Below the pieces are notes generated by a model. It was not told the origin of the DNA and made no database searches. It worked only from the letters and a program-made list of their open reading frames with translations. DNA of 64,000 bases, taken from contig JBMOMO010000146.1 in NCBI GenBank assembly GCA_049324135.1, positions 28,322-92,321 of the forward strand, given 5' to 3'. How positions within the stretch are numbered: the first letter of the stretch is position 1; every line of letters starts with the position of its first letter. This document shows, piece after piece, positions 16,340 to 64,000 of this stretch. Origin of the DNA: Chloroflexota bacterium (GTDB lineage Bacteria; Chloroflexota; Anaerolineae; Anaerolineales; Villigracilaceae). The position numbers and the translations under genes are program-made.

Positions 16340-16342
16340 GAT
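16314..16342 (+). promoter_or_regulatory. Sigma-70-like promoter inside the 82-nt module (TTGGCA-17-TACGAT)
   Basis: TTGGCA at 16314..16319, a 17-nt spacer, then TACGAT at 16337..16342. GGAGG and the ATG at 16365 follow. Confidence 0.4.
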
Positions 16343-16364
16343 GCTTCCCATTCTGGAGGAAAAA

Positions 16365-16751: not shown

Positions 16752-16822
16752 TGGGGGCTCGTCTAACGGCAGGACGGCTGACTCTGGATCAGTTAGTAGA
16801 GGTTCGAATCCTTTGCCCCCAG
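16752..16822 (+). tRNA. tRNA-Gln (anticodon CUG)
   Basis: Hand-folded cloverleaf. Acceptor stem TGGGGGC/GCCCCCA (U1:A72) with discriminator G. D-stem GTCT/GGAC. Anticodon stem GCTGA/TCAGT with loop CTCTGGA. T-arm AGAGG-TTCGAAT-CCTTT. CCA is not encoded. Confidence 0.9.
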
Positions 16823-16829
16823 CCTGCTT

Positions 16830-44133: not shown

Positions 44134-45042
44134 CTATTCTGGCAAATTGCGGCGCAGCAACCATTCTTGCAGCGTTTCGCCAACGGCTGCCAGGCTTTCG
44201 GCTGAAACTTTATCGGGCGTATCGGCGGCCGTGTGATAGTACGGGTAATCGAAGTCGATGATATCTACGGCAGGGATGCCGGCCTGTAGAAAGGGCGTAT
44301 GGTCATCCAGGATGCTGTATTTCGGCTGCGCAATGAACCGGTCTGCGTAGCCCAGGTCTGCCGCCGCTGTCCAGATTTCATTTACCAGGACGGGGTCGGA
44401 ATTCCGTTCGATGTAGATGTCCTGCTCGGCGTCGCCGATCATGTCTACGATGACCACCGCCTCGGGGCGCGCCTCCAGTTGCTCCACGAAGGCGCGCGAG
44501 CCGAGGATCCAATCCCAGCCGTGGATGTCCCCGTTGTCTTCCGCGTCGAAGAAGACCAGCCACAGCGGCGGTGCGTCTTCGGGCAGGGTGCGCGCCAGTT
44601 CGAGCAGCACGGCCACGCCCGAGGCGCCGTCGTTTGCGCCCGGCACAGGCTGGAGTTGCTTGAAGGGATCGGGATCGTGGTCGGCGAAGAGGCGCGTGTC
44701 GTAGTGCGCGCCGAGGATGACCTGCGGCGGCTCGTCCCCGCGCCAGGCGATCAGGTTTTGGATGGGATGCCCCAGCATTTCGGCGGACTGGATGCGCGAG
44801 TCCCAGCCTGCAGCGGACAACTCCGCGCGCATCCATTCCAGGACGCGGGCCTGCCCGGCCGACCCGGGCGTGCGCGCCCCGAAAGCGACCTGCGTTTCGA
44901 CGTCGGCCAGGGCGCGCTGTCCGTCGAATGCAACGGGAGCAGCCTCCGGCTGGGTCCAGAACGCGAAGATGTACCAGCCTGTCACGATGGCGAGCAGGAG
45001 TCCGATCAGGGAAAGGTAGATTGCGATCCGTTTTTTTGTCAT
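44134..45042 (-). CDS. M28-family metallopeptidase (aminopeptidase / glutaminyl-cyclase-like)
   Basis: 302 aa. N-terminal TM helix or signal. Metal-ligand motifs [18 protein letters not shown] and FFDAEDNG. Confidence 0.85.
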
Positions 45043-46391
45043 AGGCTTATATACGTTTCCAGCGCGGCCAGGGCGCGGTCGGCGTAGGCTTTCCCGCGCT
45101 CGCGTTTGCCGGGCGGTTTTTTGCCCGTGTGTTCCAGGGGCGGCAGGATGCCGAAGTTGGCCTTCATGGGTTGGAAGTCTTGCATGTCGGCGTGGGTGAC
45201 GTAGCGGCAGAGCGCGCCCAGCATGGTTTCGGGCGGCAGTTCGAGCAGGGACTCGCCTTTGAGCAGGCGCGCGGCGTTGAGTCCCGCCAGCAGGCCGGTG
45301 GCGATGTTGCCCATGTAGCCTTCCACGCCGGTGATCTGGCCGGCGAAGAACAGGTCGTCGCGCGTTTTGTGTTGTAATGTGGGGCGCAGCAGTTTGGGGC
45401 TGGCCAGGAAGGTGTTGCGGTGCATCTGGCCGTAGCGCGCGAACTCGGCGTTTTGGAGGCCGGGGATCAGGCGCAGGACGCGGCGCTGTTCCGGGAATTT
45501 CAGGTTGGTCTGGAAGCCGACCAGGTTGTAGAGATCGCCCGCCAGGTTGTCTTGCCGCAGTTGGACGACGGCGTAGGGGCGGCGCCCCGTGCGGGGATCG
45601 GTCAGCCCGACCGGGCGCATGGGGCCGAAGGCCAGAGAGTCGCGCCCGCGCTCGGCGATGATCTCGACCGGCAGGCAGCCTTCGAAGAAATGATGCGCGC
45701 CCGCCCTGACGCCCGTCTTGATGGCGTCTTCGAAAGAGCGCAGTTCGATGCGCTCGGCCGCCAGCAGGGCGTGGACGAAGGTTTCATATTCTTCTTTCGT
45801 GAAGGGACAGTTGATGTAATCACCCTCCTCCTGCTCGCCCTTGCCGTAGCGCGAAGCGTGAAAGGCGATCTCCATGTCGATGCTGCCCGCTTCCACGATG
45901 GGGGCAATGGCGTCGAAGAAGTACAGGTTCCCTTCGCCGTTCAGTTCGGCCAGGGCTTTCGAGAGCGCCGGGGAGGTGAGCGGGCCAGAGGCGATGACGG
46001 CGGGCGTCCCTGGGATGCCGGTGGCTTCCTGGCGAATGACTTCGATGTCCGGGTGGTTTTGGATGCGTTCGGTGACGGCGCGCGCAAAGCCTTCCCGGTC
46101 TACGGCCAGGGCGCCGCCTGCTGGCAGGGCGGTCGCTTCGGCGCAAGAAAGCAGCATGGAATTCAGCCTGCGCAGTTCGTCCTTGAGCAGGCCGGAAGCG
46201 CGGTCGGGCAGGTTCGAGCCGAGCGAGTTGGAGCAGACCAACTCGGCCAGGTCTGCGGACTGGTGCGCGCCGGTGGATGTTTCCGGGCGCATCTCGTAAA
46301 GCCGCACTTTGAGTCCGTATTGGGCGGCTTGCCAGGCGGCCTCGCTGCCCGCCAGTCCGCCGCCAATGACGGTGAGGGAGGGGGTATTCAT
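45039..46391 (-). CDS. trmFO: Methylenetetrahydrofolate--tRNA-(uracil-5-)-methyltransferase TrmFO
   Basis: 450 aa from the ATG at 46391 ([21 protein letters not shown]...). Its stop overlaps the M28 gene start by 4 nt. Confidence 0.95.
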
Positions 46392-46451
46392 GTGAGAACC
46401 GATTGTACCATTTCCAGTTGTTTCGACTCGTGTTGTATAATCAGGTTGTTT

Positions 46452-49082
46452 ATGAAAGAATCCAGCAGAGTGCTTCATCTTATCAAAGAAGCGGCCCATA
46501 TCACTGGCGCGGATTGGGGGGCGCATTTGGAGCGCCAGGGCGGAAAGTGGCATTTTTTGCATGTGTATCGTATCAATAAGAAGCGAGTTGTTGCGCTGGG
46601 CGAGTACCTTTCCCGGGCGTCTGTGGATTCTTGGTTGTGCGGGGCGTTAGGTAGCCGTTCCAGCCGTTCGCGCAGTATTTTGGATGAATCGGTTTTGGGT
46701 TGTCCGCGTTTGTATGCGTATCCGGTGGGTAAGAGCACGGATGTATTGTTGGTCGGTGGAGGGGAGCAAGACAAAACCTCGCGGGCTGTTTGGAAATTGG
46801 CGGCAGATGCATTGTCTGATGGCGCCGCGCAGGAGCCGGAGGTTTTGCCGGTGGTTAGCGACACGCTCGTCCCGTCTATCCAGGAGGGAGTGCCTTATGA
46901 CCTTCCGGCGGCCTTGGATAGGATTCTGGCCCTGATCGCGCAACAAATTCCTTGCCAGGGGGCATGGTTGGGCGTGCGGCGCGGCGATATCTTTGACCTG
47001 CGTTCTCACTGGCGAGCGCCGCAATGCAAGAATATCTCCCTGGCAATGGAGGCTTACGATGCGCTGCGAGAGATCGGCCTGACCCATGCTGGCTTGCGCT
47101 TCGAGCGCGACCAGCCAGGCTGGGAGTTCATTCCGCAAATGGGCTTGAAACCGACGACTGGCGCGTGGGGTTGCGTTCCGTTGGTGGTTGGCCGGCGGTT
47201 GATCGGGGCTGTTGCTTTGTGGCGGTTGCGTACCTTTAACGATCAAGAGTGGAAGCAGTTTTTGGAACTGGTTGCGCGCGCTGCGCCGTCCGTTGAGATC
47301 ATCCTTACTTTTACAGAATTGAGCGGCCATTTGCGTCGTTTGGCCTTGTTGAATGATTTCGTGCTGACAGTTTCTTCCGGCCAGAATTTGGACCAGATTG
47401 CGCGAAGAGCATTTGCGCTGGTTGCGCGCGCGTTCCAAACTGAGTCGATCAGTATGTACTTATTATCTACTGACGGGCGTATGCTGCGGGAATACCAGAA
47501 TGACAGTGGCCGGCTGTCCATTCACACCAGTAGTGTCGCCGGACATCCCTTTGCTTCTGTCTTGAAGATCGGGCACATTCAATCGTTCGACAAGGATTCT
47601 GCGCCTGTTGATTTGCAATTTGCTTTGGACGAGTCGCACACATTGATGTTGGTGCCGCTGAAGTATCGCGGGCGTAATAACGGTTTACTCGTTCTTGGGC
47701 AGGAACGGTCAGATGAGTTTTCCGTTTATGATATTCACTCTTTGACGGTTTTGTCGGGCTATCTGGCCGGTTTGGTTGAATATAGTCGCCTGCGTGAAGA
47801 AGCAGAAGCGCGCGCAAGAAATCTTGGCCTGATTCACGAGGTTGTCCAGGAAGTAATCGGCCTGGTCAATAAACAGGAAGTCGTGCAGATCACGGCTGAA
47901 TTGTTGGTGCAGTATTTCGGATACGAATTTGCGGTGATCGTTTTGGTTGATCGTGATGGGAATGCGACGATATGCGGCGTCGGCGGTTCCCAGGCCCCCT
48001 CAGCGCAAGCGATCTTGTCTGAAATTTTATTGTCAGCCAGGGAAGGTGATGGCGGCATAACCGGTTATGTGTTGCGAACCGGTGAGAGTATACTCGTGAA
48101 CGATGTAAGCCGGTCGCCGTTGTATTATCCGCTTCGCGGGTGGGAAGCAGGATCGGAATTGTGTATTGCCCTCAAAGAGGGGAATCGCGTAATTGGTTTG
48201 ATGGACATCGAAAGCAGCGTCCAGAATGCGTTTGGGCAAAATGATTTCATGGCGCTAGAATCTTTAGCGGGCATTTTGAGCAGCGTACTATCCAGCGCTG
48301 ATCAGTATCAGCGTTTGCAAGAGAACATTCTGCAGTTGCAGCAAATTCAACTCGAATTACAGACCCGGATTGAAGCGCAGATGGAAGCCGAGCGTAGGTT
48401 GATCCAGGCTGAAAAATTAGCGGCAGTCGGTGAGATGGCAGCCGGTATTGCGCACGAATTGAACAATCCGCTGACAACAGTGACCGGGTTTACCGAACTT
48501 GCTCTAGAGGAAATGCCGTTAGAAGCGGCCAACCGGTCTGACCTGGAGATGGTCTTGAAAGAGGCGCGACGCGCACGGGATGTTGTGCGTCGTTTATTGG
48601 ATTTTTCTCGCCGCAGCGAAAGTGAACGCACGCGCGTGGATATTAACCAATTGGTGAATGACGCCCTTTCTTTGACAAAGCATTTGATTCACACAAGCGG
48701 CGTCCAATTGGACCTGCGTTTAGGAACGAATTTACCCTGGGTTTCCGTAGACCGGAACCAAATCAAACAGGTTTTCCTGAATTTGTTTCACAACGCGCTG
48801 CAAGCAATGCCGTCGGGTGGTAGCCTGAAGGTAGAGTCTTGTTTTCGCGAGCGTGATGAACGGAAATGGGTGGTTGCTAGTGTGGCGGATACGGGCGGCG
48901 GGATTGCCGTAGCGGATAAGGAGCGCATTTTCGAACCATTTTTTACTACTCGTTCTGGGCAAGGCGGCACCGGCTTGGGACTTTCGGTGACATATGGGAT
49001 CGTTTCTGATCACGGCGGCATGATTGAGGTAGAAAGTGAGTTAGGACAAGGGGCTTGTTTTACCGTATGGTTACCATTTTAG
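46452..49082 (+). CDS. Cytoplasmic multi-GAF sensor histidine kinase
   Basis: 876 aa from the ATG at 46452. About 4 GAF-like modules, H-box [12 protein letters not shown], and an HATPase domain (DTGGGI, GGTGLGL). The first 344 codons of the tracked 1220-aa ORF are antisense to trmFO and were dropped. Confidence 0.9.
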
Positions 49083-49094
49083 GATTTTGAAGAG

Positions 49095-50678
49095 ATGGAA
49101 GAGCGGATTCTTGTATTAGACGACGAACCAGGGATTACTTTGTTATGTAACCGCTTGTTGAAGCGCGAGGGGTATCAAGTTGCACCGTTTACTTCCGCAG
49201 CGCCCGCTATCGAGTATTTACGCGCCAATCAAGTGGACTTGCTCCTTGTTGATATTCGAATGCCCGATATAGATGGATTCGAAGTGATTGAATATGCCAG
49301 GAAATTACAACCCGATATCGCCGTCCTGGTCATGACCGGGTTTGGAACGGTGGAGACGGCTATCCAGGCTCTTCGAAGGGGCGTCGACGGGTTATTGCTT
49401 AAACCGTTTGAAAAAAGCAGCGAATTAGTGGACGCGGTAAAACAATCCCTGGTTGACAGTGAGAAAAAACGTGACGCTGCGCGTATCCAGGCGCTACGGC
49501 CCTTGTTTGCGGTAACAGAATCCTTTTTCTCTGAGACCCATCCTGAACAATTGTTGGGGTTGATCATTAAGGCGATTCGCAGCCACCTGCGTTGTTCCTG
49601 TGCTGGTTATTATCAATATGCGGGAGAAGGTTTGCAATTGCTTTTTGGTGAAGGGAACGTGGTTGACCCGTTACGAAGCAAGGCCGAGAGAGACTTGATT
49701 CTGGATATCGAGGCATTTGGAGGACCGGTGTTGGTTAATTGCTCTGGCCCAGGAAATCCCACTTTGCAGTCGCGTTTACGGAAACTTGGGTTTGGCGCGG
49801 TGTTATTTGTGCCAGTAACGCGATTGAAGGTGCGTAGTATATTGTTCGCAGGGAGAGAAGCCCAAGACGCTCCTTTCCGCGAATCCGATATGGAAATGTT
49901 CCTTATTCTTGCCAGTCAGGCTGCTGTCGCTATAGAGAATGCGCGTTTGTATGCTGAGTTACGAGATTATGTAAAGCAAGTCGAAGAATCGCAACAAGCA
50001 TTGCTCCAGGCTGAAAAGATGGCGGCCGCCGGGCGTCTGACCGCCTCTATTGCCCATGAAGTGAATAACCCTTTGCAGGCTGTACAGAACTGCCTGCATC
50101 TGGCCGGGCGCGCAGACTTGCCTGAAGAGCAGCGTACAGAATATTTCGAACTTGCAAAAACAGAATTGAATCGGTTGATGTCCACGGTGCAAAGGATGTT
50201 GGATTTCTATCGTCCTGGCGCCGTTGTCCCAAGTGAAGTGAACGTTCCTGAAGTTTTACGGCATGTAATGAATCTCATGTCCCAGCAATTGGAAAAGCGT
50301 GGTATCGTTGTAGAGGCAGATATTGCAGATTCCCTGCCTCCTGTTTTCGCGGTAAGCGGCCAAATTCAACAGGTATTCATCAATTTGATTTTAAACGCTT
50401 TCGACGCCATGCCTGATGGAGGCGTTCTGCAAATCCATACGCATGTAGTGCGACGTGGAGTCGAAATCTTGTTTCAAGATACTGGGTTGGGCATTCCCCG
50501 AGACCGGCTGGCGCACATTTTTGAGCCATTTTATAGTACGAAAAGCGGGGGGACAGGATTGGGGTTGACCGTCAGTTATAATATTATTACTGCGCATGGC
50601 GGATCTTTGGAACTTGTCGCAAACAATAAACCGGGAGCGTGTTTCCGCGTTTACTTGCCGTTTGGAGGAAAAAGATGA
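49095..50678 (+). CDS. Receiver-GAF-histidine kinase hybrid
   Basis: 527 aa. REC (ILVLDDEP...LLLVDIRMPDIDG), GAF, H-box ASIAHEVNNPL, and an HATPase domain (DTGLGI, GGTGLGL). Confidence 0.9.
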   Translation: MEERILVLDDEPGITLLCNRLLKREGYQVAPFTSAAPAIEYLRANQVDLLLVDIRMPDIDGFEVIEYARKLQPDIAVLVMTGFGTVETAIQALRRGVDGLLLKPFEKSSELVDAVKQSLVDSEKKRDAARIQALRPLFAVTESFFSETHPEQLLGLIIKAIRSHLRCSCAGYYQYAGEGLQLLFGEGNVVDPLRSKAERDLILDIEAFGGPVLVNCSGPGNPTLQSRLRKLGFGAVLFVPVTRLKVRSILFAGREAQDAPFRESDMEMFLILASQAAVAIENARLYAELRDYVKQVEESQQALLQAEKMAAAGRLTASIAHEVNNPLQAVQNCLHLAGRADLPEEQRTEYFELAKTELNRLMSTVQRMLDFYRPGAVVPSEVNVPEVLRHVMNLMSQQLEKRGIVVEADIADSLPPVFAVSGQIQQVFINLILNAFDAMPDGGVLQIHTHVVRRGVEILFQDTGLGIPRDRLAHIFEPFYSTKSGGTGLGLTVSYNIITAHGGSLELVANNKPGACFRVYLPFGGKR

Positions 50679-51415
50679 AATTTAACATCCTGGTTGTTGA
50701 CGATGAACCTGTTTCACGCAAATCGCTCACTGATATTTTGCGATTGGAGGGTTATAGTGTTGCTTCTGTCCCGAATGGGCAGGCCGCAATCGAACATATC
50801 CGCACGCATCATATCGACTTGATGATCGTTGACCTTCGCATGCCGGGCATGGATGGCTTGGAAGTTGTTCAAGTTGTGAACCAGATTGCTTCCGACACGG
50901 AAGTGATTGTGCTGACCGCTTACGGCTCTACGGAAACAGCCATCCAGGCGTTACGCCTGAGGATACACGACTATCTGTTGAAACCCGCCCCTCCTGCGCA
51001 GATTTTGACCAGCGTCAAAAGAGGGTTGGAGCGTCGCGCGTTGCGCGTGCGCGCAAAAAGCGCGGATTCGGATTCGTCTGATCTGGAAGACATTTTGGAT
51101 TCCGTTTCGCTTCCCGATGGAACAATAGTGGATTTGTCGCGCCGGCAAATCAGGCGTGGAGAAATTTTGGTAAGCCTGACGCCGGCTGAGGGTCGCTTGT
51201 TGCGCGTGTTATTAATCAACGAAGGTAAGGTTTTTGCTCATCGCGACCTGGTGCTGCTTGTCCAGGGGTACGATACGTCACAACGGGAGGCGCCAGAGAT
51301 CCTGCGACCTTTGGTGAGCCGGCTTCGGCATAAATTGGAAGCATTCCCGGCGCTGTCTGAGCAAATTGTCAGTATCAGGGGGACAGGATATGTTTTTGAG
51401 AAGAAACCAGAATGA
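50675..51415 (+). CDS. OmpR/PhoB-type response regulator
   Basis: 246 aa. The ATG overlaps the preceding stop (ATGA), with GGAGG upstream. REC (ILVVDDEP...LMIVDLRMPGMDG) plus a winged-helix domain (...LVSRLRHKL...IRGTGYVF). Confidence 0.9.
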   Translation: MKFNILVVDDEPVSRKSLTDILRLEGYSVASVPNGQAAIEHIRTHHIDLMIVDLRMPGMDGLEVVQVVNQIASDTEVIVLTAYGSTETAIQALRLRIHDYLLKPAPPAQILTSVKRGLERRALRVRAKSADSDSSDLEDILDSVSLPDGTIVDLSRRQIRRGEILVSLTPAEGRLLRVLLINEGKVFAHRDLVLLVQGYDTSQREAPEILRPLVSRLRHKLEAFPALSEQIVSIRGTGYVFEKKPE

Positions 51416-51435: not shown

Positions 51436-52368
51436 TCAGGGTAGGTCGGGGGGAAAATTTGTTGGGGGGCGCAGCCAGCCCAGCCAACCACTTTTTGCGG
51501 GTTTGCGTACAGTGGCAGGTTTGTCGAAATACATTAGAAGTATGCTCAGGCTAAGGATGCCTGCGCCAATCCATTGCGCTTGCGCGAGTTTCTCGTGCAG
51601 CCATGTAATGCTCAAGCCGATGGCAACCAGCAATTCCAATAGTCCCAGGAGCGCTGTTTGCATCCCTCCCAGGTATTTTACGCCTTGAAATAGCGCGAGC
51701 CTTGAAAGAAACGTAACCAGCGTCAATCCGATAATAGGATACCAACTTGCGTTGGAAGGTATTGGGTGGCCTAAAAGGAGGAACACTGGCACAACGACCA
51801 GACTCATGGCTATTAAGGTATATAGCGTGACCGTTGGAGCAGGAACATCATAAAGTACTCGTTGATTGATCGGCAGGTGAAGCGCATACAGGATCGATGC
51901 AAGTAGCATTTGTCCAACTCCAACCATATCAATGGTAACTGATTCTGAATAGGTCAACAGGAAGACGGCAATCATTGCAAGTGCAATGCGAAAAAGGGTT
52001 AACTTGTTAGGAGGTTGTGAGTCTAATACCAGCCAAATAGCCACAAAAAGGGGATATAGGGAGTAGAGCAATTGTCCAAGGCTGGCATTGATGCGGCCTA
52101 AAGCCGAATAATATAATATAGAACCAATTCCGTTGAATAATCCTGCCAATCCGCACCCAATCAACCCCGCCGGGTAGATGTAAAGATATTTTCGCCGAAA
52201 TACAACTACGATAATCAGTAACAGGAGCGTGGCCATCAATGTTCGGATGCCAACCACTGCAAGAGGTGAAAACCCCAGGTTGATTGCTTGTTTGCCAAAA
52301 ACAGGCGTGAAACCAAGAAAGGTTGCAGATAACAAGACAGCCCGAATCCCCGCTTTCCGTTTTTGCAT
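51436..52368 (-). CDS. EamA/DMT-family transporter
   Basis: 310 aa from the ATG at 52368. Ten TM segments in two repeats. Lies 10 nt downstream of the ThrC-REC gene. Confidence 0.85.
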   Translation of the reverse strand: MQKRKAGIRAVLLSATFLGFTPVFGKQAINLGFSPLAVVGIRTLMATLLLLIIVVVFRRKYLYIYPAGLIGCGLAGLFNGIGSILYYSALGRINASLGQLLYSLYPLFVAIWLVLDSQPPNKLTLFRIALAMIAVFLLTYSESVTIDMVGVGQMLLASILYALHLPINQRVLYDVPAPTVTLYTLIAMSLVVVPVFLLLGHPIPSNASWYPIIGLTLVTFLSRLALFQGVKYLGGMQTALLGLLELLVAIGLSITWLHEKLAQAQWIGAGILSLSILLMYFDKPATVRKPAKSGWLGWLRPPTNFPPDLP

Positions 52369-52378
52369 GGGGTTGACC

Positions 52379-54049
52379 TTAATCCAGTAACGAACGGACT
52401 TCATCAAGAAATTCATCGTTGAGAAAGTCTCCTTTTTGCATCAACGATTGAATTTGTCCTTCCAATCGATTTTTTTCATCGGGTGTCAGTTCTTTGGCAG
52501 AAGCAACGATTACTGGAATGTTTGCCGTTTCGGGGTTGCGTTTCAGGATGTCAATGACTGTAAAGCCATCCATTTCCGGCATGATGAGATCAAGGATAAT
52601 CAGGTCTGGTTTTTCTTTCTCAATGAGAGCCAGAGCCGTTTTGCCGTTTTCGGCTTCGAAGATTGTGAAATCACCTTGCGATTGTAATATCCTCCTGATC
52701 AGGCGGCGCGCATCGGCGCTGTCATCTGCGATTGCGATGCGCGGGAATCTTTCTGGGGCCACGCGGTTTAACGCAGCAAGTAGGCCATCTTGTTGAGGAA
52801 TCTCGCCGCGACTCGGCATTTCTACATCCAGCGACCAATCTTCTCCGAGCAACCATTGTTCGGCTGGCATGGTATGGCCGGTGCAGTTGATAACCACAGT
52901 ATCTGAGGGTTTGATGACGCCATTGCGCACCAATTTGAACAATCCTGCAAAAGCGACCCCTGCGGCCGGTTCTACAGAGAGACCCTCCATCTTTGCGACC
53001 ACATGCATTGCCCGGAACGCTTCCCCGTCACTGACGCTTTCGAATATTCCCTGTGTTTCATCGACTTCTCGCTTCAGCAATTTGTAGGTTCGGCCTGGGT
53101 CGCCAGTCGCAAGCGTCTCAATATGAGTTTGGGGTGTAGTAATCACAATTGGGGTTTCCAGGCCTCGTTGCCAACTTGTGACCATTGGCGCGCATCCTTC
53201 CGCCTGGATGGCGGCAATGGCAGGTAAACCATTGACGTAGCCCATTTTTGTGAGTTCACGAAATCCTTTAGAGACTCCTAATGGCCCCATACCGCCGCTG
53301 ACAGATTGAATATACCAATCGGGTGTACGCCATTTGGGTGACTGTTTACTTCTCTTCGATGGGCGTCCAAGTTTTTGGGTAAGTTGTTCCGCCACTTCGT
53401 AGGCAATCGTTTTCATTGCTTCTACAGAGGTGATTGTCCTTGCTCCCATATCATGGTACAAACCGCGCTGGCGAGCAAACTCGGAAGCCATTTGTTTGGT
53501 TTGATCATAGGAGCCGGTTACTTTTACAACCTGGCTTCCATATAAGGCAATTTCGCGCATTTTTACAGCAGGCACCAGGCTGGTTACAAAAGCCCAGAGC
53601 TTTATCCCTGCGCGCGCGGCGTATGCAGAGTACGAGATTGCCACATTCCCGGTGGACGCAGCAACCAATTCCGTGATACCCGCCTCTTTGAGCGCTGCAA
53701 TGGTGACAGCCGCTTGGCGGTCTTTGAATGACGCTGTAGGGCCTTGTCGTTCGTCCTTGATAAATAAATTCGGGCATCCGAGCATCATGCCCAAGTTCAC
53801 TGCCTGGATAAGGGGTGTGCCGCCCTCCCCCAGGCTTATATTGGCATTGGGGTTGCGGACTGGCAGTAACTCGTGGTACCTCCAAAGATCGAATGTGCGT
53901 TCATGCAATTGTGCATTCCAGGTCTTCGATACTGAATCCAAATCGTATTCCGCAACTCTCCATTGACTGTTGCATTTGGGGCAACTTGCGGTTGTTGGAT
54001 GGAATGGCGCTGCATGATTGCAGTCCAAACAGCGTATTTGAAATGTCAC
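52379..54049 (-). CDS. Threonine-synthase-like PLP enzyme fused to a C-terminal response-regulator receiver domain
   Basis: GTG at 54049 with AGGAGG 7 nt upstream, 556 aa. Cys4 ribbon CLDC...CPKC, PLP-lysine motif TASFKDRQAA, and SVSGGMGP. REC follows: RIAIADDSADARRL...PDLIILDLIMPEMDGFTV...IPVIVASAK. Confidence 0.85.
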   Translation of the reverse strand: MTFQIRCLDCNHAAPFHPTTASCPKCNSQWRVAEYDLDSVSKTWNAQLHERTFDLWRYHELLPVRNPNANISLGEGGTPLIQAVNLGMMLGCPNLFIKDERQGPTASFKDRQAAVTIAALKEAGITELVAASTGNVAISYSAYAARAGIKLWAFVTSLVPAVKMREIALYGSQVVKVTGSYDQTKQMASEFARQRGLYHDMGARTITSVEAMKTIAYEVAEQLTQKLGRPSKRSKQSPKWRTPDWYIQSVSGGMGPLGVSKGFRELTKMGYVNGLPAIAAIQAEGCAPMVTSWQRGLETPIVITTPQTHIETLATGDPGRTYKLLKREVDETQGIFESVSDGEAFRAMHVVAKMEGLSVEPAAGVAFAGLFKLVRNGVIKPSDTVVINCTGHTMPAEQWLLGEDWSLDVEMPSRGEIPQQDGLLAALNRVAPERFPRIAIADDSADARRLIRRILQSQGDFTIFEAENGKTALALIEKEKPDLIILDLIMPEMDGFTVIDILKRNPETANIPVIVASAKELTPDEKNRLEGQIQSLMQKGDFLNDEFLDEVRSLLD

Positions 54050-54089
54050 GTTGCGGCCTCCTGGCAACAAACATGTTCCTGATAATTTT

Positions 54090-57000
54090 TTAGTTGTCTA
54101 TGCGTTTGAGCGCATTTTCAATTGTTGCAATGAGTTCCTGCTCTTGCAAAGAACTTTTTTGTAACAACTTCTGCCCGAACATGTGAAGTTGGTCGCGCTG
54201 CTCGCCTGTCAAGTCGCTGCTACTTACCACAACAACAGGGATATTCCTCAGTTCGTTGCTTTCATGCAATTTCTCAAGAAGTGAGAATCCATCTACATCT
54301 GGCATGAACAGATCCATGACAATGGCATGTGGCGTCTTTATTTGAATTGCAGTCCACCCTGCCTGCCCGCCTTCTGCCAGGATAGGTTTGTATCTTCCTT
54401 GGTTCGAGATCATCGTTCCAAGCAGGCGCAGATCATTCGGGTCATCGTCTATGATCAATACTTCTCGAATACTTCCATCGTTATTTAGACGATCAAGCGA
54501 AGATAGTAAATCATCTTCTACAACCGGCTTGACAAGGTAATCTGCTGCGCCCAGGCTGAATCCCTTTTCTTCTTCTTCCAGAATGCTGCAAATGATTATC
54601 GGGATACCGCGCGTTTCGGGGTTGGATTTCAGGTCCTCAAGAACGCGCCAGCCGTCATACCCTGGCATCATGATATCCAGGATGACCGCAAAAGGTTTTA
54701 ATAGCCTTACTCGTTCTTTTGCTCGCGCGGGGTCATTTAGACTGATTACTTGGAAACCTTTTGGCCGCAGATATCGTTCATACAGACTGAGGATTTGCGG
54801 ATCGTCGTCGATAGTCAGGATTGTCTTGAGGCCGCTTGTTGAAATCTTTTGTTCTTTCATAAATATAGGGACAGTAAAATAGAATGAACTTCCCTTTCCT
54901 GGCATACTATGAACACCAATGCGGCCATGATGCATTTGGACCAGGTGATGGCAAATTGATAATCCAAGGCCAGAACCGCCGACTTTACGAGTTAGGGATG
55001 CATCAACTTGTGAGAAGGGCTGGAACAGTTTGGCTTGGTCTTCAGGAGAAATGCCCGGTCCGGTGTCGGTAACAGTGACGATCACAGAAGATTGCCCGGT
55101 TGTAGCCAGGTCGTCCACCTCAGCCCTTACAGTGATTTCTCCCTTTTCTGTAAATTTGGCCGCGTTAGAAAGCAGGTTGATCACTACCTGCCTGATGCGC
55201 ATTGGATCGGCGCGGACTGTTGGGAGGTCGGCTGCAACCTCTTGTTTCAAGGTGATTTGTTTGTCCTTGATCAGGCCTGCGGCAGTGGACATCACGCTTG
55301 TAATCAGGTCATTGATGTTTACTTCGCTGAACGAAAGTTCCATCTTGCCCGCTTCGATACGGGAGAGATCAAGGATGTCATTGATCAGGCCAAGCAAATG
55401 TTGCCCGGCATTGAAAATAGCCGTCAGGTCTTGTTGTTGTAATTCTGTAACAGGGCCGTCAATTCCTTTAAGGATGACTCGTGCAAACCCGATGATCGAA
55501 TTGAGAGGGGTGCGAAGTTCGTGACTCATATTTGCCAGGAATTGACTCTTCAGTCGATCAACCTCCCGCATTTCCTGAACAGCCTGTTGGGCGATATTGT
55601 AAGAACGCGCGTTGTCAATTCCAATGGCGATTTGATCGGCTAACAGTTGTAGAATGGCTACATCATCTTGCGAAAAAGCGTTCACTTCCGTCGATTGAAT
55701 GTCCAGGACGCCGATAATCCGGTTTCCAATGTGCAAGGGGATGGCGGCCTCGGCTCTTGTATCGGGGAGTAAAGGGTTGGGTTTGTGGATGGGATCGAGC
55801 GCTGTGTTGTTGATGACAATTGGATTTCCGGTCTCTGTTGCTTGCCCTACGGTTGATTTAGAGCCGACTGCCAATGAATGTTCTCGCTGTTTCATTTGCT
55901 CGCCAGCCTCGCCGGTGGCTTCCTGCAACACTGCGTTGAAACCGGTCTCTTCGACGATGAAGATGGCAGCGTGGTAGTAACCAAAGCGTTCCTGCACCAG
56001 GTTTACTGCGCGCGAAAAGATGGCTTTCAGGTCCAGGGAAGATGTGACCAGGCGTCCAATCTCGGCCGAGGCGGCCAGGTATTCGTTTCGGCGTCGCAGC
56101 GCTTCTTCGTTTTGCTTGCGCTCCGTGATGTCTGTCTGGACAGCAAGGAAGCCTAAGACCATATCATTATTTCCAATGATTGGACTGTACGTTCCGGTGA
56201 CTGGAACCAAACGGCCATCTTTTGCGCGGTTGATTATTTCCAAAGAATACGTCTTCTTTGCAACCAGCGATTCCCAAAGTTCTTTGTATCGATCTTGCGG
56301 ATATAAGCCGGATTTTAGGACACGGGGCGTTTGACCAATGACTTCGTCTAGCGTATATCCATAGATATTTTCAAATCCCTGGTTGATATATTGAATTTTG
56401 CCTGTTGCGTCTGTTAGAAAAACGGCATTGTTCGTGTTTTCGATGCCCAGTTTGAATTTAGCCAGGTCTTCTTCCGCCCTTTTGCGCTCGGTGATGTCTC
56501 GCGCAACCCAGAAGACGTGATCCTCGGTTAGTTTTGAAACGTTGGCATCGAACCAGTATTCTTTGCCGTTTATTTCCAACGGGTATTCGATTTCTTGGGA
56601 TTGTCCGGTGTCCAGCGTGGTCCGAATGGTTGACAAGAAGGGCGCGTGAAGGTTTTCTGGCAATACTTCTTGCAATGTCCGGCCAAGCAGTTCTTCACTG
56701 GGGCGGAACAGGTAATTTGGGTTTGTTTCTGCAATGCGCTCATACCTGCCTTCGCGGTCATAGATAATAATGACATCTTCCATGGCAGAGAAAAGCGCTT
56801 TTAGTTCGGACTCGGACTGTTGGGTTCGCTGGAAAAGGCGGGCATTTTCAATGGCAAAACCGATTTGCCGTCCAATGGATTGTGTCAGGCCAACCATATT
56901 TTCCGACATTGGCTCAGGGTTCTCGTTGAAAACACATAATGTGCCAACGATTTGCCCTTTTGCTTCCAGGGGGACGCCCAAATATGCAAACAATCCGTTG

Positions 57001-58265
57001 CTCATTAGCCCTGTGAAATCAATCGGCGTTGCTTCCCGCGTGTCAGAAACAGCCAGTGTAGATTGCAATTTGAATACATAGTCGCACGGAGTTCCTGCCA
57101 GTCCTGCGGTTTGCAGTTTTTGTAGAACAGGTAAGGGCAGGTTCTGGTGCGTAAATAATTCCAGTTGCCCTGAGGCTTCATTCTTGAGTGAGATGAGACC
57201 GCAACTGAAACCAAGCATATCCAAGATTTGTGAAAGGAGTGATTCCAAGAGTTGCGTTAATTCCAGCGTTTGACTGGAAGAGAAGATGATTTGGTTGAGG
57301 GCGCTTAATTCCTCAGCCCGGGCTTGTGTCTCTTGGAATAGCCTGGCGTTGTCCAGGGCAACTGCCGCCTGGTTGGATAGAATCATCGCCAGGTTCAATT
57401 CTTGTTGGGAGAACTGTCTTTCCTGGTAAAGTTCCTCGAGGTGGATCATGCCTGTTGCGCGGCCCTGCATGATGAGCGGCAAACGCACTTGCGACTTGAC
57501 GCTAAATTTCCTCATGTAAGCCTGTTCGATGTCATCCAGGCTTTGGTCACTGCTTAACAGGATGACAGGTTGCAAGGTTGCCAGCATTTGTTGCGTGGCC
57601 GGGTAGTCTGCTGGGTCTGTTTCCAGGTTTGTCCATAGTTCGTCTTCGGGGCGTTTTTTGTTTTCTGGTATGTAATCAACAACGGTGCGCATTTTCCCTT
57701 GAGGGGTGAGCAGGAGAATCGAACATTCTGTTACCTGGAAAATTTGTATGAAGTATTTTGCAATCAGGTTCGCAATTTCTTCTAGTTGTAATGGCACCTC
57801 TGCAAGGTTCTGGCTTACGTTGAGTAGTGTTGTCAATTCTTGAACACGCTGTTGTGTTTCCTGGAACAGGCGCGCATTTTCCATTGCGAGGGATAATTGG
57901 TCGGCTACTTGTTTGACCAGTAATTGTTCTTCAGAGCCCCAATCGCTTTTCCCTGTTTCGTCAACAACCTTGAGTGTTGACCAATTCTTTTCGTCCAGGC
58001 GGAAAGCGGTAGAAAGCGTCGTCGTAGGGGCGTCCCGCGAAATAACGGAAGCAAGCCTTTCGTCGGCTTGAAGCGTCATCCCCGTCCCAAATAGAACTTC
58101 GGATATTTCATCCGAAAGACTCATAGGAGTGGACGGGAGGCTGGGCGTCTGTTTGTTCTTTCGACTGCCGCTTCTGTCCGGACGTTCGGCTTGCGTTTCT
58201 GCTTCGTTGTTTTTTATCTCGTCGAAAAGTTTATCGAGCCTGTTGTTTATCTTTTTCTTCGACAT
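54090..58265 (-). CDS. Hybrid sensor histidine kinase (GAF x3-4, PAS x2, GAF, HisKA, HATPase, REC x2)
   Basis: 1391 aa from the ATG at 58265. Repeated ...ENARLFQETQ... GAF ends, PAS pairs ending DITERK, H-box MSHELRTPLNSI, GSGLGLSI, and two REC domains (ILTIDDDP...ILDIMMPGYDG and VLIIDDDP...VMDLFMPDVDG). Confidence 0.9.
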   Translation of the reverse strand: MSKKKINNRLDKLFDEIKNNEAETQAERPDRSGSRKNKQTPSLPSTPMSLSDEISEVLFGTGMTLQADERLASVISRDAPTTTLSTAFRLDEKNWSTLKVVDETGKSDWGSEEQLLVKQVADQLSLAMENARLFQETQQRVQELTTLLNVSQNLAEVPLQLEEIANLIAKYFIQIFQVTECSILLLTPQGKMRTVVDYIPENKKRPEDELWTNLETDPADYPATQQMLATLQPVILLSSDQSLDDIEQAYMRKFSVKSQVRLPLIMQGRATGMIHLEELYQERQFSQQELNLAMILSNQAAVALDNARLFQETQARAEELSALNQIIFSSSQTLELTQLLESLLSQILDMLGFSCGLISLKNEASGQLELFTHQNLPLPVLQKLQTAGLAGTPCDYVFKLQSTLAVSDTREATPIDFTGLMSNGLFAYLGVPLEAKGQIVGTLCVFNENPEPMSENMVGLTQSIGRQIGFAIENARLFQRTQQSESELKALFSAMEDVIIIYDREGRYERIAETNPNYLFRPSEELLGRTLQEVLPENLHAPFLSTIRTTLDTGQSQEIEYPLEINGKEYWFDANVSKLTEDHVFWVARDITERKRAEEDLAKFKLGIENTNNAVFLTDATGKIQYINQGFENIYGYTLDEVIGQTPRVLKSGLYPQDRYKELWESLVAKKTYSLEIINRAKDGRLVPVTGTYSPIIGNNDMVLGFLAVQTDITERKQNEEALRRRNEYLAASAEIGRLVTSSLDLKAIFSRAVNLVQERFGYYHAAIFIVEETGFNAVLQEATGEAGEQMKQREHSLAVGSKSTVGQATETGNPIVINNTALDPIHKPNPLLPDTRAEAAIPLHIGNRIIGVLDIQSTEVNAFSQDDVAILQLLADQIAIGIDNARSYNIAQQAVQEMREVDRLKSQFLANMSHELRTPLNSIIGFARVILKGIDGPVTELQQQDLTAIFNAGQHLLGLINDILDLSRIEAGKMELSFSEVNINDLITSVMSTAAGLIKDKQITLKQEVAADLPTVRADPMRIRQVVINLLSNAAKFTEKGEITVRAEVDDLATTGQSSVIVTVTDTGPGISPEDQAKLFQPFSQVDASLTRKVGGSGLGLSICHHLVQMHHGRIGVHSMPGKGSSFYFTVPIFMKEQKISTSGLKTILTIDDDPQILSLYERYLRPKGFQVISLNDPARAKERVRLLKPFAVILDIMMPGYDGWRVLEDLKSNPETRGIPIIICSILEEEEKGFSLGAADYLVKPVVEDDLLSSLDRLNNDGSIREVLIIDDDPNDLRLLGTMISNQGRYKPILAEGGQAGWTAIQIKTPHAIVMDLFMPDVDGFSLLEKLHESNELRNIPVVVVSSSDLTGEQRDQLHMFGQKLLQKSSLQEQELIATIENALKRIDN

Positions 58266-59019
58266 ATTCCAGTAACTCCTGGGCAAGGACACGATATTGT
58301 TGTGAGCCGCGACTGTTGGGTTTGTAGTGTGTAATTGGTTGGCCGGCAATCGGGCTTTCCCGAAGTTTTGTGTCAATCTCGATGACTGTTTCGAACAGGC
58401 CTTTGCCAAATGTGTTTTGTAGTTGTTCTTGGATGTTGCGGTGCGTGCGGTTCCTGCGATCCAGCATGGTGATGAGGATGCGGTAGGCGAGGTCGGGGTT
58501 GCTTTCCTGTCGTATCCGGCGGATCATTCCCATCATATTGCGCAAGGCGTAGGCAGAGAAGAATTCGGCCTGTGTTGGGATAACCAGTAAATTTGCTGCG
58601 CTTAAGGCATTTTGCGTAATGGCTCCCAGGAAGGGTGGACAGTCGAGCAGGATGAACTGGTATGATAGGGGGGAGGCCGCTTCCAGGGCGCGCTTTAGGA
58701 TAGCCGTGTAGTTGTTGCGGATGGGGAGGTATTGTTCTGCGCTGTCAATGTTGGAATGCGCCGGGATCAGGTCGATGTCTTCGATTTCTGTCTTTTGGAC
58801 AGCGCTCAACAGGGAGGCCCCTTCTATCAATATGTTGCTGGACGAAACCGGAGCCTGGTTGATTTCCAATCCAGCGGCCAACGTTAAATTCGCCTGGGGG
58901 TCCAAATCAATCAACAATACTCTTTGTCCGGTTTCAGCCAGGGCGGCGCCAAGAGACAAGGTGGTGGTGGTTTTTGCCACTCCGCCTTTTTCGTTCGAGA
59001 TTGCAATTATGTAAGCCAT
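58231..59019 (-). CDS. ParA/MinD-family ATPase (orphan; no ParB gene seen nearby)
   Basis: 262 aa. Deviant Walker A SNEKGGVAKTTT and LIDLDPQANLT. Its 3' end overlaps the proposed kinase start by 35 nt. Confidence 0.9.
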   Translation of the reverse strand: MAYIIAISNEKGGVAKTTTTLSLGAALAETGQRVLLIDLDPQANLTLAAGLEINQAPVSSSNILIEGASLLSAVQKTEIEDIDLIPAHSNIDSAEQYLPIRNNYTAILKRALEAASPLSYQFILLDCPPFLGAITQNALSAANLLVIPTQAEFFSAYALRNMMGMIRRIRQESNPDLAYRILITMLDRRNRTHRNIQEQLQNTFGKGLFETVIEIDTKLRESPIAGQPITHYKPNSRGSQQYRVLAQELLEYVEEKDKQQAR

Positions 59020-59044: not shown

Positions 59045-61087
59045 TCAGTTTGGGTCGTTATTATTTTCAGTTGGCCCCTGCTTTAGCAGGGTGTGGGGTA
59101 ATAGTTGTACCTGGGTAGCGCCAAGCGCCGTTTTGAGTTCGTCGAGGGCTATTCGAATCATGTCGTCTGGATCGCTGGCGCTTCGGATTTTTGTCGTTAT
59201 ATCGGAAACAAGGCGTTCTCGTTCTGCGCGACGCGCGGTCTCTTCAAAGAGACGCGCGTTCTCTGCTGAAATCGCTACGCGATCAGCAATTGCTTTGATT
59301 AGATTCAGCTGATCTGCGCTTGGTTCTGTTGTCAAAGGCAAGTGGACATCCAGTGTACCAATGTGCTCTCCGCGGATCTCTATGGGTATGGAGACCAGGC
59401 GAGTTTGCTCATCTGTTGCGGATAGTCCTTTAACCCGCTCGATCATTTGCCAGTCGCTTGGTTTTTCGACCTGGCTAACCCCTTCGGCTGTGTATATGAT
59501 CCCCGCCAGTTTTTGTTCTTTTGGTAGTCTGTTCCAGGCTTGTCGGATGTATTGCCGGTAAACTGTCTCGGCTTCGTCCAGGGATTTCCGCGCCTGGTCA
59601 AACAGGCGCGCATTTTCGATTGCAAGGCTTACCTGATCTGCCAGGAGGGAGAGTGCGCGGACATCCTCTTCCCCAAAAGCGGTTGGCTCGGTGCTTTGTA
59701 CATCTAAGGCGCCAACGATAGATTTGCCAATCCTCAATGGCAGCGCTATTTCTGAGCGGGTTTGCGGCAGGTCGGGGTTTTCGAAAAATACTGCATCTTC
59801 ACCAACATCCAGCGCAATGCGCGGGTTGCCTGATCCGGTCGTGTAACCAACAATGCCCTGTTCACCGATCTTTAGCCTGTGTCCGCGCTCAAGCATGTGT
59901 TGACCGCCTTCACTGTTTGCCGCCCTGAGGAGGGCATATTCCTTTCTGTCGTCGCTCAGGAATATGCCAACGTGATAATAGCCGAACTCCTGACTGATCA
60001 GTTGAGTAATTTTTGGCAACAGTTCGTCCAAGGAGCGGATGGATGAGATTGCGCTGCTCACTAAAGTGATGGCCTCGAACTGTTTTGCACGCCGGTTGCT
60101 TTCTTTGTTTGCTGACGCCAAATCGCGGGTGCGTTCCTGTACTCTCTGTTCCAGGCTAGTTAGCGTTTCTTGTAATTGCCTGGACATGTTGTTGAGTGTA
60201 GCGGCAAGGGAAGATATCTCGTCGTTGCCGCCAATCGAAATAATAGCGCGCTTGTCCAGGTAGCCATCTTCCATGGCTTGCGCGGCGCTTTGCACAACTT
60301 GTAACCTTTTGCTGATAGAGCGAGCAATGGAATAAGAGAGGAATAATCCAAATATAATTGCCAGCAAGAGCGCCAGTATCATTCGTACAATGACATCTTG
60401 GTAGGCAACCTCGATCATTTCATTTAGCACACTGGAAAAATCGTTGTTAATTTCAATTAATTGCTCAATCGAAGTCCGCGCTGACGCAAGCGCTGAGAGT
60501 GCATCTTGATTTGCTTCTATGTCCAGTTCGCCTGTTTCTAACGTAGCAACCATCGCGTTAAATGACGATGAATAGGTCGCGTATTCACTTGTAAACCGGT
60601 TAAAGCTCGCCAATTCCGAAGCCTGTAAGGCGTTGACTTTTTGTTCTATCTCAAGTTGTTTTGTCTGGCGCAAGCCAGCCGTAAATTCTAAGGGCACAGG
60701 GGATAGCCAGACGGCCGCATACGTGTCAATGATTGGTTTTATTTGTTCTTCCGCAGCGCGAATTGTTTGAATGTGATGGGTGCGTTCGGCTGGAAGGAGG
60801 TTTTCATTTTGTAGCGCAATCAGGGCGGTTTGGATATCGGCTATTGCAGCATTTACTTGACTGGTCTTGATGAGGGGCAGTAATACCACTTCGTAGTTTT
60901 TGTTTTGTTGGGTTCCTACTGAAGTTAAACCGCGCAGCGCGGCCAGGAAGACGCCTATCGTACCTAGCACCATTACAAAGATCAATGCATTGAGTTTCCA
61001 ATTGACCTTAATGTTTGCAAAGAGGTCTTCATGGAAATCTTCGGGCGCTTGTATCGTGCGTATTTTGGGGAGGTCTTGTGCGGTCAT
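59045..61087 (-). CDS. Membrane sensor: helical ectodomain-TM-HAMP-GAF-GAF-like, with no recognisable output domain
   Basis: 680 aa. Two TM segments flank a ~190-aa helical domain. HAMP (...SKRLQVVQSAAQAMEDGYLD...ISSLAATLNNMSRQL). GAF with FGYYHVGIFL...GALDVQSTEPTAFGEEDV...ENARLF. Confidence 0.85.
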   Translation of the reverse strand: MTAQDLPKIRTIQAPEDFHEDLFANIKVNWKLNALIFVMVLGTIGVFLAALRGLTSVGTQQNKNYEVVLLPLIKTSQVNAAIADIQTALIALQNENLLPAERTHHIQTIRAAEEQIKPIIDTYAAVWLSPVPLEFTAGLRQTKQLEIEQKVNALQASELASFNRFTSEYATYSSSFNAMVATLETGELDIEANQDALSALASARTSIEQLIEINNDFSSVLNEMIEVAYQDVIVRMILALLLAIIFGLFLSYSIARSISKRLQVVQSAAQAMEDGYLDKRAIISIGGNDEISSLAATLNNMSRQLQETLTSLEQRVQERTRDLASANKESNRRAKQFEAITLVSSAISSIRSLDELLPKITQLISQEFGYYHVGIFLSDDRKEYALLRAANSEGGQHMLERGHRLKIGEQGIVGYTTGSGNPRIALDVGEDAVFFENPDLPQTRSEIALPLRIGKSIVGALDVQSTEPTAFGEEDVRALSLLADQVSLAIENARLFDQARKSLDEAETVYRQYIRQAWNRLPKEQKLAGIIYTAEGVSQVEKPSDWQMIERVKGLSATDEQTRLVSIPIEIRGEHIGTLDVHLPLTTEPSADQLNLIKAIADRVAISAENARLFEETARRAERERLVSDITTKIRSASDPDDMIRIALDELKTALGATQVQLLPHTLLKQGPTENNNDPN

Positions 61088-61090
61088 GCG

Positions 61091-63580: not shown

Positions 63581-64000
63581 TTAAAGCGCCTGGCTTTCAG
63601 GTTGATCGTGAGCGTCTTCTGAAAGGATACTCACGCTCACTTCGCAATCCGTCAATAAAGCGCCCAGGCTTTCGGCGGTAGCCTGTAGGATGGCGTCCAC
63701 TTCCGGTTCAGCCCCAATGCGGCTGGAAACATTGGCAATGGCGCGTTCCAGTTCGGCGCGGCGCTGGGTGTCCTGGTGCAATCGCGCGCTTTCCAGCGCG
63801 GCGCCAATTTGGTTGACCAACCTGTTCGCATCAGCAATCTCATCATGCGACCAGTCTTGCATTTCAGGCGGCTTCACTAAGCGCACAATGCCGATTGTCT
63901 GGTTGCGCACTTGAATTGGCGCAGCCAGCGTTTTTCGGTCCTCGCTCAAGATGGGTTCGCCTTCCTTGTTGGCTCGGATCGCCTCCGGCTGTTGCAATGT
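63581..64000 (-). CDS. 3' part of a third GAF-module sensor paralog (continues past the right edge)
   Basis: ...LAAPIQVRNQTIGIVRLVKPPEMQDWSHDEIADANRLVNQIGAALESARLHQDTQRRAELERAIANVSSRIG... aligns with the C-terminal modules of the two downstream paralogs. The tracked TTG start at 63997 is probably internal. Confidence 0.75.
   Translation of the reverse strand, partial: TLQQPEAIRANKEGEPILSEDRKTLAAPIQVRNQTIGIVRLVKPPEMQDWSHDEIADANRLVNQIGAALESARLHQDTQRRAELERAIANVSSRIGAEPEVDAILQATAESLGALLTDCEVSVSILSEDAHDQPESQAL

Follow-up and report, generated by a model that had tools for sequence, protein, structure and literature searches.

A ThrC-like pyridoxal-phosphate enzyme joined to a receiver domain in Anaerolineae: a candidate response regulator with a metabolic output

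Can a two-component pathway act directly on an amino-acid reaction, through a receiver domain joined to the enzyme itself? This question is raised by a gene on the minus strand (52379..54049) of a 64,000-nucleotide stretch of contig JBMOMO010000146.1 (assembly GCA_049324135.1) from a Chloroflexota bacterium of the family Villigracilaceae; the whole stretch is referred to below as the window. The open reading frame (ORF) list, the Pfam profiles and a set of 348 fused homologues describe the product as a protein of 556 amino acids (aa), in which an N-terminal zinc ribbon and a threonine-synthase-like (ThrC-like) domain of the pyridoxal 5'-phosphate (PLP) family, PALP, are followed by a linker and a C-terminal receiver (REC). 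The original prediction, made without database searches, read the locus as phosphorylation-gated synthesis of an amino-acid-derived compound followed by its export. The results presented here lead us to lean, without great assurance, towards a response regulator that has a PLP enzyme as its output; the enzyme would act on an amino-acid substrate, and the compound concerned would be handled by a dedicated transporter or acetyltransferase. That the fusion is a phospho-regulated enzyme is the part of this reading that we consider likely.

The presence of both halves in one polypeptide was the central claim of the original prediction, and it was borne out by the Pfam profile search. The PALP domain was matched over residues 71-391 (52877..53839, minus strand, as are all features of this gene) at 1.3e-63 and 215 bits, above the gathering score, and Response_reg over residues 438-539 at 3.3e-20 and 72.7 bits against a gathering score of 30.2. 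The receiver as a whole spans residues 438-556 (52382..52738) and also matches CheY-like receivers in the PDB at 1e-19. The frame opens with a GTG codon (54049..54047), preceded at a 7-nt spacing by the ribosome-binding site AGGAGG (54057..54062), and closes with TAA (52379..52381). This start, which had been proposed at the outset, can be read in the sequence and agrees with the N-termini of the homologues; it is favoured over TTG 54070 because the close homologues are 553-566 aa long and begin with MSFxIRCLDC. The other motifs named in the prediction were likewise found to be present and conserved in the homologues. The four cysteines of the ribbon (C7, C10, C23 and C26, CLDC...CPKC; 53972..54031) are invariant in the homologue alignments and in every complete sequence among the 348 fused proteins. 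The PLP lysine is K109 within TASFKDRQAA (53723..53725), and the remaining motifs of the PALP domain, supported by the motif comparison and the residue census, are KDER (98-101), SFKDRQAA, ASTGNV, GAR (202-204) and SGGMGP, the last within the glycine loop SVSGGMGP. The predicted acidic pocket and phospho-acceptor proved to be part of a complete catalytic quintet, which comprises the acidic pair D442/D443, the acceptor D487 (DLIILDLIMPEMDG; codon 52589..52591), S517 and K539.

Between the two domains lies a linker of about 40 residues (392-432; 52754..52876), delimited by the alignments and by an AlphaFold2 model. The model was built from a 70-sequence alignment covering two clades and reached a mean predicted local distance difference test score (pLDDT) of 79, a run with 30 close homologues having been too weak (pLDDT 69). 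The PLP domain is modelled confidently, with pLDDT mostly above 85, and the linker is predicted to be disordered, with values of 30-40 over residues 391-422. The linker ends in a conserved GLLAAL helix, of which G422 and A426 are kept across the clades.

The fusion is not restricted to this assembly. The best 120 database relatives are 73-97% identical to the window protein and 502-566 aa long, a few of them being truncated, and all carry both PALP and Response_reg; they come from metagenome-assembled genomes of Anaerolineales or Anaerolineae. A scan with one genome per GTDB species revealed at least 572 loci encoding relatives. The best 80 of these are at least 69% identical and nearly all are labelled Anaerolineales, Anaerolineae or Chloroflexota, including Candidatus (Ca.) Villigracilis and Villigracilaceae. 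When 1.84 billion cluster representatives were searched exhaustively, no more than a handful of full-length fused ones, 46-64% identical, were found. We also considered an artefact of assembly or sequencing, such as a missed stop or a frameshift near 52700..52800; its probability is practically nil, since a single uninterrupted ORF with a conserved linker recurs intact in hundreds of assemblies made independently by different projects and with different sequencing technologies.

The fused proteins fall into three clades, all within the class Anaerolineae and each about 47-50% identical to the others. Clade A, to which the window protein belongs, has the order PALP-REC, a length of about 556 aa and 64-97% identity to the window protein. 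Clade B is PALP-REC-REC with, in addition, a single-REC variant, about 700-720 aa long and 46-50% identical to the window protein, and clade C is again PALP-REC, about 548 aa long and 48-50% identical. Clades B and C were found in genomes of Anaerolineae, Aggregatilineales and Phototrophicales. The residue census covered 348 fused proteins (119 of clade A, 120 of B and 109 of C). The PLP lysine K109 and the KDER motif are present in 348/348, S132, G134 and N135 of the carboxylate loop are invariant, and T133 is kept in 347/348. In the receiver, 347/348 retain the acceptor D487, 347/348 retain K539 and 347/348 have T or S at position 517; the acidic pair consists of D or E and a following D. 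Because catalytic and receiver residues are kept across all three clades, the pattern of conservation indicates that the enzyme half and the receiver half are both under purifying selection as working parts. The original prediction had also named no characterised beta-family PLP enzyme under the control of a fused receiver and had proposed a census of the architecture. The former point stands, as the literature searched contained neither a characterised example nor any account of a PLP enzyme joined to a receiver domain. Any impression of rarity does not, as the architecture is widespread in Anaerolineae, occurring in hundreds of species-level genomes.

Several relatives deserve separate mention. 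One clade-A locus (L078, contig JADJSY010000060.1) is labelled "Lewinellaceae bacterium" (Bacteroidota), and it is fully syntenic with the Anaerolineales loci; it is probably a mis-binned contig rather than a case of horizontal transfer. A divergent branch, P0124/P0394 (L091 10001..11689, and L092), has a degenerate receiver in which AHSD replaces the acidic pair and which scores 27 bits in Pfam, below the gathering score. No kinase gene is adjacent to it. Upstream, in divergent orientation, is the gene for a DsrE sulfur-relay protein, and argF, argD and a pyruvate kinase gene follow downstream. The nearest unfused relative, P0410 (L090 5239..6507), is 51% identical to the window enzyme and 58-65% identical to clade C. 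This rare protein is encoded on a cyanobacterial contig. A gene for a phycobilisome linker is close by, a GAF-PAS kinase gene converges on that of P0410, and no thr genes are present.

The next point concerns the reaction catalysed by the enzyme half. The nearest solved structures are class I threonine synthases (1UIM, with 1V7C, from Thermus thermophilus, 2ZSJ from Aquifex, 2D1F from M. tuberculosis and 6CGQ/6NMX from B. subtilis), matched at E values of about 1e-37 and about 30% identity, and the AlphaFold2 model has a ThrC-like fold with a TM-score of 0.85 to 6nmx and 2zsj. The fold-type II PLP architecture, the SFKDR segment, the S-T-G-N loop and the C-terminal TGH are common to these enzymes and the fusion protein, and many archaeal and bacterial ThrC-like proteins also bear an N-terminal Cys4 ribbon. 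In public databases the fused proteins are named "threonine synthase" or "pyridoxal-phosphate dependent enzyme", and NCBI names clade C threonine synthase. The simplest alternative is therefore a genuine threonine synthase, which would convert O-phosphohomoserine to threonine with its flux tuned by receiver phosphorylation, the neighbouring EamA protein being an RhtA-like exporter of threonine or homoserine. The best sequence and structure matches and the annotation of many members speak for this alternative. The EamA family does include the threonine/homoserine exporter RhtA. A divergent cyanobacterial ThrC-like enzyme is also reported to retain weak threonine-synthase activity (PMC12172450).

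The profile models and the residues of the substrate pocket argue otherwise. The fusion protein scores below the cut-off of all seven NCBIfam threonine-synthase models, with 259.5 against 303 for the best of them (PRK08197), 142.9 against 167.1 for TIGR00260 and 185.5 against 421 for PRK05638. The motifs were compared with a canonical set, consisting of three solved ThrCs and three Zn-ribbon ThrC-like representatives (P0228, P0246 and P0251) that all keep the signature, and the window subfamily in this comparison includes a few unfused relatives. Before and at the PLP lysine, the canonical K-x-E-G-x-NPTGSFKDRG is replaced by KDER-QGPT-x-SFKDRQA. The carboxylate loop ASTGNT becomes ASTGNV/A, the distal substrate region NSxNPxRxEGQKT becomes G-A/I-R/K-x-I-x-x-x-E-x-MKT, and the PLP-phosphate loop GNAGN becomes SGGxGP; the window protein itself reads STGNV ... 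GARTITSVEAMKT ... SGGMGP. Both NSxNPxRxEGQKT and the T of STGNT are missing in 348/348. The canonical T, N, S and R at the equivalents of Thermus T88, N154, S155 and R160, which we take to be the ligands of the O-phosphohomoserine phosphate, occur in none of the fused proteins. Their loss is accompanied by new basic or polar residues, R101, Q112 and R/K204, which are invariant or nearly so in the subfamily and suggest that the pocket was rebuilt to take another anionic group. The operon and its flanks contain no hom, thrB or thrC gene, no thr gene was found in any locus examined, and no canonical thrC in the window or the loci fetched, the remainder of the genomes not being covered. Moreover, the division into three clades, with B and C both present in Aggregatilineales and Phototrophicales, is untypical of a housekeeping enzyme. 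A true threonine synthase is consequently very unlikely in our estimation. Judged by its motifs, the enzyme belongs to a distinct "KDER/FKDRQA/SGGxGP" ThrC-like subfamily and is probably not a threonine synthase. The original description as threonine-synthase-like thus holds for the fold only, because the model cut-offs are failed and the ThrC signature is replaced.

Another candidate is offered by MetM of Streptomyces albulus. This enzyme forms homocysteine from O-phosphohomoserine and the MetO thiocarboxylate, and its gene is described as lying beside a MetO sulfur-carrier gene and downstream of an S-adenosylmethionine (SAM) riboswitch (bioRxiv 10.1101/2024.10.14.618325; PMC12172450). MetM is homologous to ThrC and is said to be "often misannotated as threonine synthase" (the same sources, the latter citing Hasebe 2024), and it shows that the ThrC fold can be recruited for a gamma-replacement other than threonine synthesis. 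A divergent "ThrC" of Microcystis, 51.6% identical to MetM, has weak synthase and deaminase activity (PMC12172450). Like the fusion enzyme, MetM and the Microcystis protein are non-canonical ThrC paralogues that are routinely annotated as threonine synthase. The fusion enzyme could accordingly be pictured as a MetM-type homocysteine or thio-amino-acid synthase under two-component control, with homoserine or serine in activated form as one partner and a protein thiocarboxylate or other sulfur donor as the other. The behaviour of the best model is in keeping with this, as PRK08197 scores 337-365 bits on other non-canonical Zn-ribbon paralogues and 245 on a canonical Zn-ribbon ThrC. The same model probably over-names ThrC paralogues, because P0410 narrowly passes its "threonine synthase" cut-off (308.8 against 303) without the canonical ThrC signature. 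The DsrE gene adjoining one divergent member points the same way as the PRK08197 scores. Escherichia coli EamA, moreover, exports cysteine and O-acetylserine.

Against the MetM alternative stand the gene context and the pocket. No gene for a MetO/ThiS-like carrier, that is, no small ThiS/MoaD-like ORF, was found in the window operon or beside P0410, and an Rfam scan of the window gave no SAM riboswitch, its sole match being one tRNA. A MetM that uses O-phosphohomoserine would be expected to have a site for its phosphate as well, whereas the fusion enzyme lacks the canonical one. None of the best NCBIfam matches listed is a family named MetM, and MetM is not reported to carry a receiver. The fusion enzyme was placed beside MetM by description rather than by sequence comparison; membership in that family is a lead and not a finding, and we consider it very unlikely. 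The preferred reading, an enzyme acting on a different substrate, is most likely because the canonical ThrC residues are replaced by another invariant set.

If the receiver controls the enzyme, a kinase should accompany it. The original prediction placed a hybrid histidine kinase of 1391 aa directly upstream, and this was confirmed. The gene (54090..58265, minus strand, from ATG 58265) ends 40 nt before the GTG of the fusion gene, and its product contains, according to Pfam, three GAF, two PAS, HisKA, HATPase_c and two REC domains. The predicted transporter could also be verified. Its gene (51436..52368, minus strand) starts with an ATG 10 nt past the TAA of the fusion gene and encodes a protein of 310 aa with two EamA repeats (EamA/DMT family, Pfam 2.6e-30) and about 10 hydrophobic segments in the hydropathy profile. 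The E. coli exporters EamA/YdeD, RhtA and YddG share with it the two EamA repeats and about 10 transmembrane segments. In NCBIfam it matched only the generic family TIGR00950, with 59 bits against a cut-off of 230, and was assigned to none of these three characterised exporter subfamilies.

Both neighbours are conserved in clade A, for which the counts were taken from the best 80 genome loci, with the loci long enough to judge as denominators. EamA lies directly downstream on the same strand in 74/76 loci (median gap 52 nt), and in 73/74 the sequence immediately preceding the enzyme gene encodes the C-terminus of a kinase (median gap 37 nt). A ParA-like ATPase gene is found further upstream on the same strand in 56/58. 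The convergent gene for an OmpR-type regulator beyond EamA, which serves as a marker for a second kinase module, is present in 49/65. The linkage to EamA is thus tighter than background synteny, as the comparison with this further flank indicates. At 64% identity (L096), the order kinase, enzyme, EamA is still retained. It is also found in the clade-C locus L097, where a 2441-aa GAF kinase precedes an enzyme 48% and a transporter 40% identical to those of the window, in flanks (transposase, rpsB, tsf) unrelated to those of the window.

Clade B has a different set of companions. In five independent loci (L086, L087, L088, L093 and L095), the order is a GAF/PAS kinase, PALP-REC(-REC), one or two solo receivers and a GNAT acetyltransferase. 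The acetyltransferase, about 250-290 aa long, occurs in 5/5 loci; the copies are 45-56% identical to each other and orthologous, and no ortholog was found in the clade-A loci or the window. The proposed coupling to EamA therefore applies to clade A, including L096, and to the clade-C locus L097, and in clade B solo receivers and GNAT stand in its place. Each of the loci examined from classes B and C has a kinase gene directly upstream, and a kinase followed by PALP-REC is an invariant association across about 50% divergence. The second partner always handles small molecules, be it a transporter or an acetyltransferase. The class-B kinases have HATPase_c as their last domain and lack a receiver, whereas class-A kinases carry two. 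The second receiver of the window kinase best matches the second receiver of the class-B enzymes (39-40% identity), and this hints that receivers have moved between neighbouring genes.

The abundance of receivers can also be read in another manner, with the PLP domain as a ligand-sensing or scaffolding module. Amino-acid binding would then modulate a receiver that acts as a phosphate sink or relay in a multi-receiver network. Two receivers on the class-A kinase, and REC-REC together with one or two solo receivers in class B, would suit such a network. The C-terminal position of the receiver, as in CheV or PhyR, instead of the N-terminal one, would suit it too, and so would the divergent branch in which the receiver is degenerate and the kinase is lacking. 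However, the PLP lysine, the carboxylate loop, the phosphate loop and TGHT are kept across the 348 sequences, which would not be expected of a pseudo-enzyme. The conserved partners EamA and GNAT handle small molecules, in better agreement with a metabolite that is made or consumed. On these grounds a sensing or scaffolding role is given little chance.

For the phospho-regulated enzyme, the following course of events may be proposed. The upstream kinase, rich in GAF and PAS domains, would autophosphorylate and pass the phosphoryl group to Asp487 of the receiver. The class-B kinase has no receiver of its own, and therefore direct His-to-Asp transfer to PALP-REC would be the simplest path. The phosphorylated receiver, held on its flexible linker of about 40 residues, may then alter the activity of the N-terminal enzyme, through dimerisation or through the open/closed movement of domains that ThrC-fold enzymes typically show, if CheB-type occlusion and receiver-driven dimerisation are appropriate analogies. 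The chemical step would fall to a Zn-ribbon PLP protein of the threonine-synthase fold (fold-type II) with its catalytic core intact, in which the marker residues of canonical ThrC are exchanged for an equally invariant set, KDER, FKDRQA, G-A-R/K and SGGxGP. The reaction would most likely be an elimination or replacement at the beta or gamma position of another amino acid, one that bears an anionic group. In clades A and C, EamA would move the compound made or consumed across the membrane, most simply by export, and in clade B the conserved GNAT acetyltransferase would modify it. That the product is exported is a tentative view, which we hold at somewhat less than even.

Several observations weigh against this proposal or parts of it. 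Pfam found no Hpt domain in the window kinase or the fusion protein. As this kinase is a hybrid that already carries two receivers, the route of phosphotransfer in clade A is not obvious. EamA-family proteins are able to import as well as to export. EamA is absent in 5/5 clade-B loci, and therefore export is not intrinsic to the family. The gene context of clade C is that of one locus, L097. The alpha4-beta5 region of the receiver is modelled by AlphaFold2 at low confidence. Finally, the roles assumed above for the four residues of Thermus ThrC are those reportedly described by Omi et al. 2003.

The design of the fusion protein can be compared with several known systems. From the class I threonine synthases it differs in lacking NSxNPxRxEGQKT and the T of STGNT, in having SGGMGP for GNAGN and R101, Q112 and R/K204 in addition, and in the added C-terminal receiver. 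From MetM it differs in a locus with neither a sulfur-carrier gene nor a SAM riboswitch. Enzymatic response regulators, such as the methylesterase CheB, the diguanylate cyclases PleD and WspR, the HD-GYP protein RpfG and the PP2C-type proteins, have in common with it a phosphorylatable receiver, a flexible linker, an enzyme and an adjacent kinase gene. In contrast to these, its output is a PLP enzyme that transforms amino acids and not an enzyme of signalling nucleotides or protein modification, and its receiver lies on the C-terminal side of that output. The design in which a catalytic core is set by a terminal regulatory domain is shared by a group of fold-type II PLP enzymes (PMC9081730). 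Cystathionine beta-synthase with its Bateman module, which responds to S-adenosylmethionine (AdoMet), threonine deaminase with its ACT-like domain and plant threonine synthase with its AdoMet-binding N-terminus are examples (PMC9081730). The regulatory domains of those enzymes bind metabolites, whereas that of the fusion protein would be a phosphorylation switch wired to a sensor kinase.

The genes further upstream on the minus strand may extend the sensory part of the system. A ParA/MinD-like P-loop ATPase gene (58231..59019; Pfam AAA_31 and CbiA) overlaps with its 3' end the start of the gene for the hybrid kinase, a soluble protein, and its NCBIfam matches to BcsQ/ParA-like families are all below cut-off. 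It is preceded by two genes for membrane sensors in which Pfam finds no output domain, one of the type 4HB-HAMP-GAF (4HB_MCP; 59045..61087) and one of the type dCache-HAMP-GAF (61091..63574). The order of the sensor genes is the same in loci L001, L002 and L005. These output-less sensors (59045..63574) and the ATPase may together form a split sensor system that feeds the hybrid kinase. A partial ORF at 63581..63997 on the minus strand is a possible third gene of this kind, and comparable output-less dCache/HAMP-GAF genes stand before the kinase gene of the class-B locus L086 and of the class-C locus L097.

On the opposite side of the operon lies a convergent module on the plus strand, identified with Pfam and composed of a GAF kinase (about 46401..49082), a REC-GAF kinase (49095..50678) and an OmpR-type regulator (50639..51415). 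This module (46401..51415) is probably a separate two-component system, because it is frequent and dispensable: its marker is present in the 49 of 65 clade-A loci given above, and the module is absent from classes B and C. The 1220-aa ORF at 45420..49082 (plus strand) is over-extended at its 5' end, where it overlaps TrmFO (45039..46562, minus strand). Homologues of the GAF kinase have 868-883 aa, and its true start is therefore probably near 46401.

Otherwise the window is ordinary chromosome with a G+C content of 54%, and includes genes for PBP2, RodA, GltX, GlnRS, tRNA-Gln, RtcB, G6PD, HflX, TrmFO and an M28 peptidase. A mobile-element or defence context for the fusion locus was ruled out, the remaining genes being housekeeping ones. 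Two class I synthetase genes, of the GltX type (10944..12431, plus strand) and the GlnRS type (14426..16396, minus strand), lie near tRNA-Gln(CTG) (16752..16824, plus strand), and a gene for the RNA ligase RtcB (12508..13929) is situated between the two.

Enzymatic response regulators and regulated fold-type II PLP enzymes are both known; what is new is their combination, which is real, widespread in one bacterial class and uncharacterised. Response regulators almost always work by binding DNA, by turning over cyclic nucleotides or by modifying proteins. With a receiver coupled directly to a PLP amino-acid enzyme, a new class of output would be added, in which a kinase sets a metabolic reaction without transcription. 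Moreover, a large ThrC-like subfamily has been defined, with an invariant catalytic core and a remodelled substrate pocket, in hundreds of species-level genomes. The names now given to its members, "threonine synthase" or "PLP-dependent enzyme", are an annotation error to be corrected. The subfamily also probably stands for a new reaction, for which the conserved transporter and acetyltransferase partners are concrete experimental handles. A bolder reading, which we regard as unlikely, would make the three PALP-REC clades an unrecognised class of signal-producing response regulators in filamentous Anaerolineae. In these, a kinase would switch on a remodelled ThrC-like enzyme that forms a non-proteinogenic amino acid or related molecule. 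Secreted by EamA or, in clade B, N-acetylated by GNAT, this compound would serve as a signal between cells or filaments or as an antimetabolite. Were it true, the two-component system would have a metabolite as its direct output, without transcription in between. Ca. Villigracilis, present among the matching genomes, is a genus that features in work on the filamentous Chloroflexota of activated sludge, and an amino-acid-derived compound secreted by such Anaerolineales would, if its existence is confirmed, be of ecological interest.

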